Sequence record: MK327933.1
Length of the DNA: 64,000 nucleotides
Direction: 5' to 3' (one strand)
DNA from: Escherichia phage vB_EcoM_G2285
A model generated the notes under the pieces. It was not told the origin of the DNA. It saw only the letters and a list, made by a program, of their open reading frames with translations, and did not search any database. Both the position numbers and the translations under genes were made by a program. Of this stretch, positions 26,587-44,362 are shown one piece after another (within the stretch, counting starts at the first letter, position 1; every line of letters begins with the position of its first letter).

Positions 26587-26623
26587 TTGTTTTGGTAGGA
26601 CTACTATAACATAATCCTACCAA
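26587..26623 (-). promoter_or_regulatory. Promoter/stem-loop cassette (PeSL-like), copy of the ATAGGACTACTATAACATAGTCCTAT family
   Basis: Minus strand GTTTAC (plus 26618-26623) followed by palindrome GGTAGGACTACTATAACATAATCCTACC. Confidence 0.5.
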
Positions 26624-32409: not shown

Positions 32410-32988
32410 TTAATTACCACGGGCTGCATTAGCAACGGCGTAAGCGTACTGAACATTAGCGTCCTTAAACGTACCTTTAGAGGTATCTATTTCTGCCTTA
32501 AAGCCGCCTTTAGCCATAACATCTGCAAATTCTTTACGGAAAGCCATTGCATCAAGACCTTTCCATGTTGATTTATGCTTGGCAAATTCAAGACCGGCGT
32601 AGTTGACAGCCTTAGCTAATTTATTATCAATAACCCATTTACCTGCTTTAGGCACAAACTTCGGGCCTTTTTGTTTAGAGAACAGTTTTAAATTCCAGCG
32701 ACGAAGGTCACTGTCGGCTTTAACAAAAGCTGCATCTAAGTTACTAGCAACAACATCTTCAATATGAGCAAATTTAAGTCCGTCAACTTCAATATTTAGA
32801 TCGTTACGCCAGCGAAGTCCTTCCCAAGCGAAGGCTTTAAAATCAGAAGCCTTTGTAGCTAAGTACCGTTCAATAGGAGCAGTTTTAGGGTCAAAGCCGT
32901 TTCCGCCACGATAAGTCCACTCGTCCTTATTAATGCCTTGAGCTTTTCCTGCAAAGGCCTCGGCGATAAATTCTTTATATGTTTTCAT
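32410..32988 (-). CDS. ipIII: Internal protein III (capsid-packaged, injected)
   Basis: 192 aa; N-terminal capsid-targeting sequence MKTYKEFIAEA; basic, alanine/lysine-rich. Confidence 0.75.
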   Translation of the reverse strand: MKTYKEFIAEAFAGKAQGINKDEWTYRGGNGFDPKTAPIERYLATKASDFKAFAWEGLRWRNDLNIEVDGLKFAHIEDVVASNLDAAFVKADSDLRRWNLKLFSKQKGPKFVPKAGKWVIDNKLAKAVNYAGLEFAKHKSTWKGLDAMAFRKEFADVMAKGGFKAEIDTSKGTFKDANVQYAYAVANAARGN

Positions 32989-33052
32989 TTTTTGTTTCCT
33001 TGTTTGTTTTGATAGAGTAATTATACCATATTAATACTTAAGCGTAAACAAT

Positions 33053-33313
33053 TTAAGCTTTACCGCCAGAAATAATTCCGAAGTTGTTAAAATCGTATCC
33101 AATATCGTCAACATCTACTTTAGGACTTGCTACAACATAAGCAATTTCACTACGTTTTGCATAGGTGTTGATTTCTTTACCATCGCCACCTAAGAAAGAA
33201 TACCCATTACGCTTTAATGAGCCAAAGTCTTCCGCATCACCAATGAAAGCTTTAACTTTAAATTTGGGGTCTTTGACATCTGCTTCAATGATAAATTCTT
33301 GATACATTTTCAT
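33053..33313 (-). CDS. ipII: Internal protein II-like
   Basis: 86 aa; N-terminal MKMYQEFIIEA capsid-targeting sequence. Confidence 0.65.
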   Translation of the reverse strand: MKMYQEFIIEADVKDPKFKVKAFIGDAEDFGSLKRNGYSFLGGDGKEINTYAKRSEIAYVVASPKVDVDDIGYDFNNFGIISGGKA

Positions 33314-33321
33314 TTTTTTCC

Positions 33322-33735
33322 TTAGTAAATTGATTTACCATAGTATTTGTACCAAGTCGGACGTTGAGCAATTTTTTCATCTAAGCGTGCTTGACTTATC
33401 GCAATGGACGCTTCGGACGGGACGTAATTATTACGAAATTCTACAGGAATGTCGGAAATATCCTGGACAGTCGTGTCCTTGATTTTGAAACCACGTTTCA
33501 AGCATTCAGCGATTAGCTCGATTTGACGTAAACGTAAAAATTCGAGTTTGTCGTAAAAGAATGTTACGTGACCTGTGCCTAAGATAAATGTTGGAGGGAT
33601 TTTAAAATCCTTTACACGTTTACCGTTTTGAACATGTTTACGGACTGAACCAAATACGCGTGGTAATTCACGATACTCAGCCATAAGATGTTGGTCGGTC
33701 AGTTCAGAAACAAGTGTTAAATTGATACGGGTCAT
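33322..33735 (-). CDS. denV: Endonuclease V (pyrimidine dimer DNA glycosylase) DenV
   Basis: ORF 33322-33747; from [29 protein letters not shown] it is 138 aa (DenV length); GGAGG 6 nt upstream. Confidence 0.9.
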
Positions 33736-33738
33736 AAT

Positions 33739-33792
33739 TTCCTCCAAGTAGTTGATGAATGTATAGTATCAAAGTCCTTGGAGGAAGTAAAC
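33739..33792 (-). promoter_or_regulatory. Early-type promoter with 10-bp inverted repeat overlapping the denV Shine-Dalgarno
   Basis: Minus strand GTTTAC (plus 33787-33792); arms TTCCTCCAAG (33739-33748) and CTTGGAGGAA (33777-33786). Confidence 0.45.
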
Positions 33793-33793
33793 A

Positions 33794-34075
33794 CTATTTT
33801 TCTGAAGCGCCTGAAATATATTTTTCAAGACGTTGTTTCATTAGCGAGCCGTTCTTAGCGATTTCTTCCGGTTTATCGCACATACGCAACAAGGCTTCAA
33901 GCTTAGCGATATTGCTGGTACGTTCAAATTTGCGAGTATCTATCTTACTAGCAAGTTCAGAAATACGTGCTAATAGACTTTCGGCTTCAACCAAAGCTGC
34001 ACCTAGCTTAGTTGCAAATGTGTCAGTAGCTTCGTTAAGAATAGATTCTGATAAAAATTCACTATATGTTTTCAT
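33794..34075 (-). CDS. Internal-protein-like small protein with capsid-targeting N-terminus
   Basis: ORF 33794-34090; from internal Met [16 protein letters not shown] it is 93 aa; same MKTYxEF leader as ipII/ipIII. Confidence 0.55.
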
Positions 34076-35746: not shown

Positions 35747-36052
35747 TTATTTTCCTCGACATTCTTTAATGAAATTTTCTAGATTGGTAGATTCAATAGC
35801 TTTTTTACGAGCTTCTGCGTGTTCTTCTTCGGTCAATTTACGTTTATAATTGACCCAGACATTATGGTCGAAACTAGTCGTGGCATATAATAACAAAGCT
35901 CCGACGAATAATAAAAACGGTGATAAGAATACAAAACCAGGAACACCATCCATATCGTAAGCCTTTTGTAATACTGCAACAGAAAGGGCTGCGTAAAAAA
36001 GTGATGCAAATATTGTTAAAAGACCAATTCGGTTGGTTTCGCCTAATTTCAT
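35747..36052 (-). CDS. Small membrane protein with C-terminal ENFIKECR motif
   Basis: 101 aa; two hydrophobic helices; C-terminus ...STNLENFIKECRGK. Confidence 0.55.
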   Translation of the reverse strand: MKLGETNRIGLLTIFASLFYAALSVAVLQKAYDMDGVPGFVFLSPFLLFVGALLLYATTSFDHNVWVNYKRKLTEEEHAEARKKAIESTNLENFIKECRGK

Positions 36053-36071: not shown

Positions 36072-36110
36072 ATAGGACTACTATAACATAGTCCTATAAT
36101 TGTGTAAACA
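36072..36110 (-). promoter_or_regulatory. Promoter/stem-loop cassette (PeSL-like)
   Basis: Palindrome ATAGGACTACTATAACATAGTCCTAT (36072-36097) plus minus-strand GTTTAC (36105-36110). Confidence 0.5.
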
Positions 36111-37106: not shown

Positions 37107-37358
37107 TTAAATTTCACGACATGCGATATTATATTCATCCCAGAGGTCATCATATGAAGCCTCTACCAAAGGAACGATTGTACCGTTTATGTCTTCATTA
37201 TAAGGGCAAATTGTACAGTGCGCATCTTCGAATCGGATGCCTTTGTGTTCAGATTTTTTATAACGCATATCGAATATCTTTGCAAACTTTTCACGAGTAA
37301 TGGTTTTACTAACCAATTTGGTTCCGATACTTTCGTAATAAATCATTGTGGACTCCAT
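37107..37358 (-). CDS. Hypothetical small protein
   Basis: 83 aa ORF with CxxC pair (CTICPYN). Confidence 0.45.
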   Translation of the reverse strand: MESTMIYYESIGTKLVSKTITREKFAKIFDMRYKKSEHKGIRFEDAHCTICPYNEDINGTIVPLVEASYDDLWDEYNIACREI

Positions 37359-37366
37359 TTAATTTG

Positions 37367-37404
37367 ATAGGACTACTATAACATAGCCCTATCTTGTTGT
37401 AAAC
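37367..37404 (-). promoter_or_regulatory. Promoter/stem-loop cassette (PeSL-like)
   Basis: Palindrome ATAGGACTACTATAACATAGCCCTAT (37367-37392) plus minus-strand GTTTAC (37399-37404). Confidence 0.5.
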
Positions 37405-41611: not shown

Positions 41612-41985
41612 GAATGTTCCACCATTTCAAAGGTATGAGCATCAACAATATGATACCAGTCAAAATTTTCTTCTGCGTTTTTATAAATTTCGCGAAGAGC
41701 CTCAACAGTTTTTCCTGTAGCAACAAGGTCGTCAATACCACCAAGAGGATAACAGTCACCAGCAAACAGAAGGAAATTAATAGTTTCTGTAGGTTCTGGA
41801 TGCAGAACACCGTTATCGTCTACCACTTCAAAGAAAGTGTAAGAAGGAGTACAAGTTTTAATCCAAGCCCATGCTTGAGCTACTGAATCAAATGGTCTGC
41901 GTATCAAACGACAATCAGGGTCTTTAGAAGGATTTGCTTCAAAATCAGCATATACGTGGTATTTCATTTTACTCACCTTTTGCAA
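41608..41985 (-). CDS. Hypothetical protein
   Basis: 125 aa ORF (start may be the internal MKYHVYADFE). Confidence 0.5.
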   Translation of the reverse strand: MQKVSKMKYHVYADFEANPSKDPDCRLIRRPFDSVAQAWAWIKTCTPSYTFFEVVDDNGVLHPEPTETINFLLFAGDCYPLGGIDDLVATGKTVEALREIYKNAEENFDWYHIVDAHTFEMVEHS

Positions 41986-42175
41986 TTTTATCCATAACGA
42001 TAGCGATTAAGCTGATTAGAAATGCTACTACCAATGAGATAGAGTTTTCAGTTGTTGTCAGTAGTCCACAAATGAATCCTACAAACATCGAAAAACTAAA
42101 AGCCATTGAAGCAATTACTACAGCAACATTACGAATCAGTTCAGCGCGTTTCATTTTATTTCTCCATTTACTCAT
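41969..42175 (-). CDS. Small membrane protein
   Basis: 68 aa; two hydrophobic helices. Confidence 0.5.
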   Translation of the reverse strand: MSKWRNKMKRAELIRNVAVVIASMAFSFSMFVGFICGLLTTTENSISLVVAFLISLIAIVMDKIAKGE

Positions 42176-42183
42176 TTGTTTTG

Positions 42184-42221
42184 ATAGGACTACTATAACA
42201 TAGTCCTATAGGCTTGTATAC
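42184..42221 (-). promoter_or_regulatory. Promoter/stem-loop cassette (PeSL-like)
   Basis: Palindrome ATAGGACTACTATAACATAGTCCTAT (42184-42209) and -35-like GTATAC (42216-42221). Confidence 0.5.
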
Positions 42222-42223
42222 CT

Positions 42224-42487
42224 TTATTTCAAATATATTGCGTATTTTTTATAGCCACCAGGCTCGTGTCGAAGACCTTTATCATTCGCAAAACGTTGAA
42301 TGTTATTGAACTGATTTTCATCAAGTTCGGATGTGTCAAATATGAAAAAGTTTCGTTTGTTACCAAGCGTGATATGCGGAGTTAAGTCAATGTTATACAA
42401 ATTAAGAATATCAGCAATAACCTGTTTGGCCGCTTTGTTAATTTTCACACCAGACGATTCTGAGATGAATTCGTTGAAAGTTTTCAT
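42224..42487 (-). CDS. Internal-protein-like small protein with capsid-targeting N-terminus
   Basis: ORF 42224-42499; from MKTFNEFISESSG it is 87 aa; located in the ipI-equivalent locus next to 57B. Confidence 0.55.
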   Translation of the reverse strand: MKTFNEFISESSGVKINKAAKQVIADILNLYNIDLTPHITLGNKRNFFIFDTSELDENQFNNIQRFANDKGLRHEPGGYKKYAIYLK

Positions 42488-42511
42488 TTTAGGTTCCATT
42501 TGGTTGTTTTG

Positions 42512-42549
42512 ATAGGACTACTATAACATAGTCCTATCATGTTGTAAAC
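42512..42549 (-). promoter_or_regulatory. Promoter/stem-loop cassette (PeSL-like)
   Basis: Palindrome ATAGGACTACTATAACATAGTCCTAT (42512-42537) plus minus-strand GTTTAC (42544-42549). Confidence 0.5.
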
Positions 42550-42857
42550 TATTTTATTCCGCGTGATGCAATTGTGTTCTGTCGTTTAACACCAGTTTGT
42601 TTAAAGTCATGATTGTCGATTTGATCGGTACGAGCAACTCCGAATGATGATTTGATTTTAGCTTTAGATCCTTTAGTTATAGAAATAAACATCTCGGAAG
42701 CCCCTTTCTTAAAGTCCGAAGCGATTACTTCAACACCGTTCTTAGCAAGTGACTTCAGAATTGCATCCGCAAACTCATCGTCAAGACCTACCTGAGTATA
42801 AATAATAAATGTCTTTGGTGCAGCAGCTTCATTGATAAATTCTTTAAATGTTTTCAT
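42549..42857 (-). CDS. Internal-protein-like small protein with capsid-targeting N-terminus
   Basis: 102 aa; N-terminal MKTFKEFINEAAA; basic. Confidence 0.55.
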   Translation of the reverse strand: MKTFKEFINEAAAPKTFIIYTQVGLDDEFADAILKSLAKNGVEVIASDFKKGASEMFISITKGSKAKIKSSFGVARTDQIDNHDFKQTGVKRQNTIASRGIK

Positions 42858-42886
42858 TTTATTTCCTTTAATTTTGTTTTGTTTTG

Positions 42887-42924
42887 ATAGGACTACTATA
42901 ACATAGCCCTATAACATTGTAAAC
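42887..42924 (-). promoter_or_regulatory. Promoter/stem-loop cassette (PeSL-like)
   Basis: Palindrome ATAGGACTACTATAACATAGCCCTAT (42887-42912) plus minus-strand GTTTAC (42919-42924). Confidence 0.5.
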
Positions 42925-42937
42925 TGTTTTGTGAAAA

Positions 42938-43623
<686 letters not shown>

Positions 43624-43627
43624 TTTA

Positions 43628-44362
43628 TTACCTTAAGATTGTTTCAATTTTAGAATAAAGCTCTTCTAAAGAGCCGTCGTTTGTAATAACTAAATCGCCT
43701 TCTTCAATAGGCAACCCAGCTTCTGTAATATGTTTATCAGTGGATTCCGTACCAGAGCGAACCACATGAATAACTGTAGCACCCATCGCTCTAGCGGTTT
43801 CCATTTCATGGACTTGGCGTGTATCTGTTACAACATAGTAATCGAAATCACTTCCAATATAATCCATATAGTTTAATGCAAAAAGCTTAACCCAATACAT
43901 ACGGTCAAATAAATTAACGACAACATCCGTACCGAGGGCTTGCATAAGACGGCGGATTGACCATGTGTCGTTGATATTATTTATAACTTCACGCAGGGCT
44001 TCATATGGTTTAATATCTAGATACGAATATCCACCTTCTAACGATGATAATACTTTAACATTATTAATCGGTAAATATTGACTTTGCAAATAAATTAGCG
44101 CTTCTTCCAATAATTCAATAACATCCAACTTATTGAGATTTAATGGTGTTTCACGGTCGTATCCAATGCCTTCAAAGTATTCGTATTTCAACTCTGTGAA
44201 TACATCAGGATTTTCAGCATGCCTACGTCCCCAGGCTATTGCTAGAGCGTCTTTAATTGGATATGCTAATTGGTATTTTACGGATTTAAAGTTTGAATTG
44301 ATGTAATCAGCAGTAGTGTCTTTACCACTACGTTTGATGCCACTTAAAAAGATTAGCTCCAT
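43628..44362 (-). CDS. 1: Deoxynucleoside monophosphate kinase gp1
   Basis: 244 aa; P-loop FLSGIKRSGKDTTAD; ...VRRLMQALGTD...DRMYWVKLFA... Confidence 0.9.
   Translation of the reverse strand: MELIFLSGIKRSGKDTTADYINSNFKSVKYQLAYPIKDALAIAWGRRHAENPDVFTELKYEYFEGIGYDRETPLNLNKLDVIELLEEALIYLQSQYLPINNVKVLSSLEGGYSYLDIKPYEALREVINNINDTWSIRRLMQALGTDVVVNLFDRMYWVKLFALNYMDYIGSDFDYYVVTDTRQVHEMETARAMGATVIHVVRSGTESTDKHITEAGLPIEEGDLVITNDGSLEELYSKIETILR

Follow-up and report, generated by a model that had tools for sequence, protein, structure and literature searches.

Two leader-bearing genes in the ipI slot of an RB69-like phage belong to the Ip7 and Ip9 internal protein families and lie behind promoter/stem-loop cassettes

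The window analyzed here is a stretch of 64,000 nucleotides from Escherichia phage vB_EcoM_G2285 (MK327933.1), which annotated relatives (phage mogra and Shigella phage Shf125875) place in the RB69-like genus Mosigvirus. Its minus strand carries, in order, gp3, gp1 (a dNMP kinase), 57A, 57B, two small genes that we identify as homologues of ip7 and ip9, and a gene for a small membrane protein, beyond which two small ORFs and then the genes for tRNA-Met and tRNA-Asn follow on the same strand. The two genes, identified as ORFs and by homology, and those that border them are as follows.

42938..43393, minus strand: 57B/acb1, directly upstream of ip7, the conserved left border of the ip locus
42549..42857, minus strand: ip7 homologue (ORF B), 102 amino acids, start MKTFKEFINEAAA
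42224..42487, minus strand: ip9 homologue (ORF A), 87 amino acids, start MKTFNEFISESSG
41969..42154, minus strand: trna.4 homologue encoding a small membrane protein (PHROG 1692), the conserved right border

The product of 42938-43393 matches the Pfam family Acb1 (PF23474) at 197 bits, against a gathering cutoff of 27 (E = 1.3e-58). The trna.4 product shares 98% identity with those of close relatives and 82% with that of T4. The order in T4 (NC_000866) is 3-1-57A-57B-ipI-trna.4-trna.3-trna.2-tRNAs, and ip7 and ip9 together fill the exact slot of ipI, between 57B (Acb1) and trna.4. The adjacency to acb1 is ancestral synteny common to T4, T2, and RB69-like phages, and there is nothing in it that is special to this phage. 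A mechanically compiled list of ORFs extends ORF A by four codons upstream (MEPKMKTF..., to position 42499); nearly all Ip9 homologues begin at MKT.

Both proteins begin with a short leader of the type that targets T4 internal proteins to the capsid.

42828..42857, minus strand: Ip7 capsid-targeting sequence MKTFKEFINE, predicted gp21 cut after Glu10
42458..42487, minus strand: Ip9 capsid-targeting sequence MKTFNEFISE, predicted gp21 cut after Glu10

Within the 10-residue leader of T4 IPIII, residues 4 and 7 serve capsid targeting and residues 8 and 10 serve processing; L/I-x-E is the motif after which gp21, the prohead protease, cleaves (PMC9026906). The leaders of Ip7 and Ip9 both have F4, F7, I8, and E10, with the L/I-x-E signal at residues 8 to 10 (I-N-E in Ip7 and I-S-E in Ip9). 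They resemble MKTYQEFIAE, and T4 IPI likewise begins MKTFKEF. We searched six frames of the window and 200 shuffles for a strict form of the leader, MK[TS][FY]x[EDQ][FY][ILVM]xE, and found four matches in the window against a mean of 0.0 in the shuffles, and all four open a minus-strand ORF. A fifth ORF came up with a looser pattern, and the three leader-bearing ORFs other than ip7 and ip9 make up a second internal-protein locus, which surrounds denV at 32410-34075. T4-type internal proteins are encoded at either of two variable loci, 57B-trna.4 or denV-e, and ip7 and ip9 lie in the former. All T4-like homologues of Ip7 and Ip9 have an intact, conserved leader, including the residues for targeting and cleavage. 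Cleavage after Glu10 is predicted to leave a mature Ip7 of 92 amino acids (9.9 kDa, pI 9.65) and a mature Ip9 of 77 amino acids (8.8 kDa, pI 9.3); a second tripeptide of the cleavage type, L-D-E, occurs at residues 55 to 57 of Ip9, within the predicted folded domain. Our literature searches found no virion proteomics or genetics on Ip7 or Ip9.

ORF B is Ip7 and ORF A is Ip9, both of them already named families. Ip7 matches PHROG 2667, annotated as internal head protein, over residues 1 to 102 (E = 3.3e-39), and its homologues, several of which carry the name Ip7, are 65 to 94% identical. In a tblastn search, Ip7 had matches in at least 283 phage records; the annotated T2 Ip7 is 93% identical and the RB69 allele 65%. 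Ip9 matches PHROG 7673, also annotated as internal head protein, over residues 1 to 87 (E = 2e-48), and is 71% identical to Ip9 of RB15 (Q38376). At least 182 records match Ip9 overall, and 26 phage records carry an 87-residue subtype to which it is 96 to 98% identical. The annotations of mogra and Shf125875 label the two genes Ip7 and Ip9. Since pairwise dN/dS ranges from 0.14 to 0.24 for Ip7 and from 0.06 to 0.38 for Ip9, both are real genes under purifying selection. PHROG 2667 also matches an 86-residue ORF at 33053-33313, which has no direct BLASTP match to Ip7, and we treated this hit as heterogeneity of the PHROG.

Beyond the leader, the two proteins share nothing that we could detect with each other or with the internal proteins of the second locus. 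In a profile-profile comparison of Ip7 and Ip9 (hhalign) only the leader aligned, over 18 columns, and BLASTP alignments to the other leader-bearing ORFs of the window and to an Ip1 were limited to the leader as well. Neither protein matched a Pfam family, and a PDB sequence search with both returned nothing below E = 0.02. AlphaFold2 (AF2) predicts for Ip7 a beta-alpha-beta-beta-alpha core over residues 11 to 72 (pLDDT about 85) followed by a disordered, basic, Lys/Arg-rich C-terminal tail, and for Ip9 an alpha/beta fold (pLDDT 82.7). A Foldseek search of BFVD with the Ip9 model gave a single significant match, to a viral protein of 535 amino acids, and as modeled the folds of both proteins are generic. 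A preliminary description of this DNA, made from its letters and ORFs, had placed two ORFs at these coordinates, beside acb1 and where T4 has ipI, and had read them as proteins with a capsid-targeting leader but with no other relation to one another or to the ipII/ipIII proteins. The coordinates are confirmed, with the minus strand now added; the Pfam match secures the identity of the neighbor, the identical gene order around ipI secures the position, and both the canonical leader, with its absence from shuffled sequence, and the lack of further similarity hold up.

Each of the three intergenic intervals of the locus contains a copy of a promoter/stem-loop cassette.

42858..42937, minus strand: cassette 1, between acb1 and ip7, with the -35 element GTTTACA at 42924-42918 and a hairpin at 42887-42912
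42488..42549, minus strand: cassette 2, between ip7 and ip9, with a hairpin at 42512-42537
42155..42223, minus strand: cassette 3, between ip9 and trna.4, with a weaker -35 element, GTATAC, and a hairpin at 42184-42209

The cassettes are visible as a 65-nucleotide direct repeat present three times (42175-42239, 42503-42567, and 42878-42942) and as a 26-nucleotide palindrome, ATAGGACTATGTTATAGTAGTCCTAT, of which the window holds six copies against none expected, with a single copy upstream of each of ip7, ip9, and trna.4. On the coding strand a cassette reads as an A-rich stretch, GTTTACA, a hairpin of 9 to 12 bp, ATCAAAAC, and a Shine-Dalgarno sequence. The hairpins fold at -13.4 kcal/mol (z = -4.1) in cassette 1, -17.5 kcal/mol (z = -5.7) in cassette 2, and -12.7 kcal/mol (z = -3.7) in cassette 3. 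In cassette 2 the G of the -35 element GTTTAC doubles as the final base of the ip7 stop codon. The copies before ip7 and ip9 are the best promoter-like sites of the region (TTTACA, a spacing of 17 nucleotides, and TG-TATAGT; 10 of 12 matches), and the design of T4 early promoters, with UP, -35, TGn, and -10 elements (PMC2988021), agrees with what the cassettes contain. The TG-TATAGT -10 element sits in the loop and 3' arm of the hairpin. A transcript started at a cassette's own promoter would therefore lack the 5' arm, and the hairpin would form only on RNA that reads through from upstream. Since the hairpins have no U-tract, they are not canonical terminators.

The late-promoter consensus was not found within the ip locus, and the nearest copy is 1.1 kb upstream.

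43978..43985, minus strand: nearest T4 late-promoter consensus, TATAAATA, inside gene 1 on the coding strand

It is possible that this site gives rise to late transcripts that read through into the ip locus. The same architecture, with different stems, flanks T4 ipI on both sides, and this is likewise so in Bas37. By the account given in Arbiol 2010 (PMC2839356), promoter/stem-loop elements at two variable IP loci go back to Repoila 1994; the same paper counts more than 30 known IP variants and regards the T-even elements as analogues, not homologues, of the PeSL cassettes. Both the T-even elements and the PeSLs of RB49 and phi1 (Arbiol 2010, Comeau 2014) repeat an early promoter and a hairpin beside variable genes. 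Unlike the PeSLs, the T-even elements have T4 early promoters and AT-rich stems without polyG or polyC (Arbiol 2010), and, compared with PeSL-type elements, those here have the -10 element within a hairpin that lacks a U-tract. The three AT-rich promoter/hairpin copies that bracket ip7 and ip9 match the T-even IP-locus elements.

We compared 33 viral loci around relatives of acb1 and found that the slot directly downstream of acb1 holds from zero to three leader-bearing ORFs, whose mature domains make up 13 or more families that remain separate at a BLASTP E value of 1e-3 or better. Counting the window and the GenBank relatives mogra and Shf125875 besides these viral loci, Ip7 is present in 10 loci and Ip9 in 11. 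The order Ip7-Ip9 is found in the window and two relatives and the order Ip9-Ip7 in two others, while other loci have Ip7 or Ip9 alone or beside other families. Two contigs whose flanking proteins are 98 to 100% identical to those of the window have no ip genes at all. In their place is one hybrid cassette, which joins the cassette 1 left flank to the cassette 3 right flank. Among full relatives the nearest are mogra and phiE142; their Ip9 is 97% identical but their Ip7 only 67%, whereas a T4-like locus whose gp1 is only 63% identical has an Ip7 that is 94% identical. The ip7 allele of the window is 93 to 94% identical to Tequatrovirus alleles; judged by these identities, it is of the T2 type, although the backbone is that of a Mosigvirus and its nearest relatives have the RB69 type (67%).

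Breakpoints of indels and allele swaps at this locus fall inside the cassette. Stem sequences differ between hairpins at equivalent positions, with eight or more kinds in all, and a few hairpins are chimeric with unpaired arms, as one would expect from crossovers within the conserved -10 loop. In other lineages many ip genes follow directly on the gene before them, or overlap it, with no separate cassette; ip9 itself, in several relatives, lacks the cassette and directly abuts the preceding ip gene. Two further statements of the preliminary description, that each gene is preceded by a conserved promoter/stem-loop cassette and that the locus varies between T-even phages, are thus upheld, the one by the 65-nucleotide repeat, the folding of the hairpins, and the promoter matches and the other by the comparison of the 33 loci.

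The closest known counterparts of the two genes are found in T2 and RB15. Ip7 of T2 (LC348380; the family was named in RB15, CAA84464) has the same 102 amino acids in length, the same kind of leader, and the same locus between 57B and trna.4. Its gene is second in the slot in T2 (after ip5), as it is in Shf125875 (after ip1), while here ip7 comes first after acb1 and is followed by ip9. Ip9 of RB15 is homologous over its full length and has the same leader and locus, with a C-terminal half that is nearly invariant (NNIxRFANDKGLRHExxGYKKYAIYLK); the protein of the window is the 87-residue subtype, which differs from it by a deletion of three residues after the leader. T4 IPI/IPI*, Ip2, and Ip3 and Bas37_0260 resemble Ip7 and Ip9 in kind of leader, small size, cassette architecture, and presumably the route of packaging and injection. 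T4 ipI and Bas37_0260 also share the genomic slot. The T4 IPI propeptide differs in having 19 residues, ending in ITE, against the 10 of the Ip7 and Ip9 leaders. Mature Ip7 and Ip9 showed no sequence or fold similarity to the characterized inhibitors Ip1 (that of Shf125875) and the Bas37_0260 family. A BLASTP match between Bas37_0260 and Ip7 (36% identity over 50 residues) was gone after removal of the leader.

The functions of internal proteins from these loci provide a precedent. T4 Ip1, Ip2, and Ip3 are inhibitors of GmrSD type IV restriction enzymes, each acting on a different one, and GmrSD variants have been proposed as the targets of every protein encoded at the two Ip loci (Silas 2025, PMC12373910). 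McrBC is inhibited by Bas37_0260, a leader-bearing protein of 77 amino acids whose gene occupies the ipI locus in a relative of T4 (bioRxiv 10.1101/2025.11.20.689424). Thus the four proteins from the two IP loci whose function has been solved all block type IV restriction. We consider it probable that the genes described here encode the Ip7 and Ip9 of a Mosigvirus, that both proteins are packaged, injected, and counter a host nuclease, and that the cassettes drive their expression and exchange. Each gene would be transcribed from its own strong promoter of T4 early type, and probably also by read-through from upstream. Judging from its sequence, the 10-residue leader would bind the scaffolding core of the assembling prohead, as has been shown for T4 IPIII, and gp21 would cut after Glu10, leaving two small, basic products (about 9.9 and 8.8 kDa) that remain beside the DNA inside the head. 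In the following round of infection the proteins would be injected together with the DNA and could act before phage gene expression, their most likely job, by precedent, being to inhibit a host nuclease that attacks sugar-modified hmC DNA. The cassettes would also offer short homologies for the gain, loss, reordering, and swapping of whole ip genes between phages. The description of this region as a counter-defense island matches a published hypothesis (Silas 2025) and is plausible for Ip7 and Ip9.

Two observations may constrain which enzymes are involved. T2 is restricted by GmrSD-ECOR21 and GmrSD-ECOR17, variants that are blocked by Ip2 and Ip3 (PMC12373910). Since T2 has Ip7 and is restricted nonetheless, neither variant should be the target of Ip7 at natural dosage, provided that the T2 stock studied is the same at this locus as the sequenced T2 record. 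Furthermore, RB69-type phages have arabinosyl-hmC rather than glucosyl-hmC in their DNA (PMC6024577), and the relevant enemy enzymes may therefore differ.

The Ip7 and Ip9 families, the variable IP locus, and the cassette architecture are already in the literature; the occurrence of the Ip9 domain without a leader in unrelated phages is a new detail. A profile search with Ip9 among 1.8 billion representative sequences returned 18 relatives, of which some bear the leader and many are leaderless, starting exactly where mature Ip9 starts. In a Kagunavirus (UTEC10), a leaderless copy with 57% identity is the first of a run of small ORFs beside replication genes, and in a Seuratvirus another, with 44% identity, lies among small early-region genes. 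The domain also occurs at residues 662 to 734 of an 861-residue protein on a T4-like metagenomic contig. Metagenome contigs with leaderless homologues are too short for informative context. The leaderless copies indicate that the Ip9 domain is older than the packaging tag or exists independently of it. Since leaderless Ip9 occurs in siphoviruses, which may lack hmC DNA, neither injection nor hmC-specific restriction would be obligatory for its function, and we regard this as mild evidence against an hmC-specific target of Ip9. It is tentatively possible, though on balance doubtful, that Ip9 is an older free-standing early module to which T4-like phages added a 10-residue tag, turning it into an injected effector. 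If so, its target would be unlikely to be a type IV nuclease specific for sugars on hmC and would more likely be a host factor or defense of broad distribution, contrary to the published proposal of GmrSD variants as the targets of all Ip-locus proteins.

These homologues also bear on whether one or both proteins might act mainly in the cytoplasm early in infection, with an incidental or inefficient leader and with a general host factor or a defense unrelated to DNA modification as the target. Such a role would agree with a strong early-type promoter for each gene and no late promoter in the locus, as well as with leaderless Ip9 in a Kagunavirus, in a Seuratvirus, and within the 861-residue phage protein. 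However, the leader has been kept intact in all T4-like homologues, and the product of T4 ipI is packaged at hundreds of copies (PMC9026906) even though that gene, too, has this early-type cassette and lacks an intergenic late consensus. We therefore consider a mainly cytoplasmic role quite improbable. It is also conceivable that Ip7 and Ip9 are packaged not against a nuclease but for head assembly or DNA condensation, as basic counter-ions or components of the core. The basic pI of both mature proteins and the disordered Lys/Arg-rich tail of Ip7 would suit such a role, and T4 IPIII mutants build heads more slowly (PMC9026906); part of the role of IPIII has been proposed to be of this kind. 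Nevertheless, relatives with 98 to 100% identical flanks do without both genes, so that neither can be needed for assembly, other phages fill the slot with unrelated proteins, and the four solved proteins of the IP loci are antirestriction factors, all of which makes a structural role unlikely. Finally, the small size of the ORFs, their lack of a Pfam match, and their absence from some close relatives might suggest chance frames or decaying remnants without function. This notion is effectively refuted by conservation in 283 (Ip7) and 182 (Ip9) records across several genera, by dN/dS well below 1, by AF2 predictions that are confident for Ip9 and for the core of Ip7, and by a leader motif that shuffled sequence does not produce.

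Probable injected counter-nuclease proteins are of interest since internal proteins travel with the DNA and can neutralize host nucleases ahead of phage gene expression. Four internal proteins have now been paired with type IV enzymes, three of them only in 2025. The window is a clean natural example of the variable locus, with a T2-type ip7 and a Mosigvirus-subtype ip9 set among cassettes whose hairpins mark where recombination occurs, and with near-identical relatives without both. Such natural pairs, which resemble isogenic strains with and without ip7 and ip9, would be useful for finding the targets of the two proteins and for predicting which hosts therapeutic T4-like phages can infect.

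In two metagenomic viral contigs, L003 and L004, the flanking proteins are 98 to 100% identical to those of the window, yet the interval from acb1 to trna.4 contains no ip genes. The regions compared were as follows.

L003:4400-4560, ip-less region with a hybrid cassette
L004:3160-3300, ip-less region with a hybrid cassette
Window 42155-42937, counterpart region with ip7 and ip9

In both contigs, the single promoter/stem-loop cassette is a hybrid: its left flank is that of cassette 1 of the window, which precedes ip7, and its right flank is that of cassette 3, which precedes trna.4. Judging from this comparison, the gain or loss of ip7 and ip9 is a clean natural insertion or deletion at the cassette. 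P0014, a 77-residue protein of Escherichia phage OLB35 annotated as "ip7 protein," lacks the capsid-targeting leader and joins Ip7 residues from about 29 to 72 in frame to Ip9 residues from about 56 to 87. This fusion looks like the product of a deletion running from the end of ip7 through the cassette into the start of ip9.

Other cassettes in the compared loci (L017:4843, L025:4469, and L012:4469) have hairpin arms drawn from different stem types, with loss of pairing. Those of L017 and L012 fold at about -1 to -5 kcal/mol, compared to -12 to -20 kcal/mol for intact hairpins, while that of L025 still reaches -12.2 kcal/mol via alternative pairing. The mismatched arms in all three are consistent with recombination crossovers within the conserved -10 loop. 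Within the window, three additional copies of the ip7/ip9 cassette were found.

26595-26620, minus strand, same promoter/stem-loop element
36072-36097, minus strand, cassette preceding a small gene at 35747-36052 (phrog_9798)
37367-37392, minus strand, cassette preceding a small gene at 37107-37358 (phrog_3723)

Since the copies at 36072 and 37367 precede small non-ip genes, the cassette is not restricted to ip genes. Separately, a T4 late-promoter consensus, TATAAATA, lies at 43978-43985 on the minus strand, inside gene 1; the 2 kb upstream of the ip genes contain no other match on the coding strand. Late transcripts of 57A, 57B, ip7, and ip9 could arise by read-through from this site.

The mature Ip9 domain also occurs outside this setting, including siphovirus copies that lack the leader and lie among small early-region open reading frames (ORFs).

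L042:3004-3222, leaderless Ip9 domain, Kagunavirus vB_EcoS_UTEC10
L043:2992-3216, leaderless Ip9 domain, Seuratvirus KS_A3
L036:8001-10586, Ip9 domain at residues 662 to 734 of an 861-residue phrog_3867 protein (P0037)

In L036, the next gene after that encoding the 861-residue protein begins with a leader-like MKPFIEYFKE. Within Ip9 itself, L-D-E at residues 55 to 57 (window 42317-42325) is a second match to the L/I-x-E motif of the prohead protease gp21, located within the predicted folded domain at the start of a modeled helix (residues 57 to 69). Leu and Asp are invariant, while Glu is replaced by Gln in most homologues, confining the full motif to the 87-residue subtype.

The ip7 allele of the window (42549-42857) is 93 to 94% identical to Tequatrovirus alleles (T2 and the T4-like locus L031) but only 65 to 67% identical to the allele of RB69, mogra, and phiE142, whose flanking genes are 98 to 100% identical to the window. 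On these identities, the allele is a mosaic, which implies that ip7 was exchanged between genera. Of the loci examined, 10 have at acb1 a member of the leader-bearing family to which the recently reported McrBC inhibitor bas37_0260 belongs; bas37_0260 itself is flanked by T4-type cassette versions.

L046:1054-1287, bas37_0260, ipI locus of Bas37 (phage KarlGJung)

The window has a second internal-protein locus.

32410-34075, minus strand, IpIII-like gene (192 residues, phrog_5341), 86-residue leader-bearing ORF, denV, and 93-residue leader-bearing ORF

Members of the 86-residue protein's family occupy the acb1 locus of three other phages (L026, L027, and L030), and the 93-residue protein shares 46% identity with T2 Ip5 and with Bas37_0261, both encoded at the acb1 locus of their own phages. 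The presence of these second-locus families at the acb1 locus of other phages indicates that genes move between the two loci.
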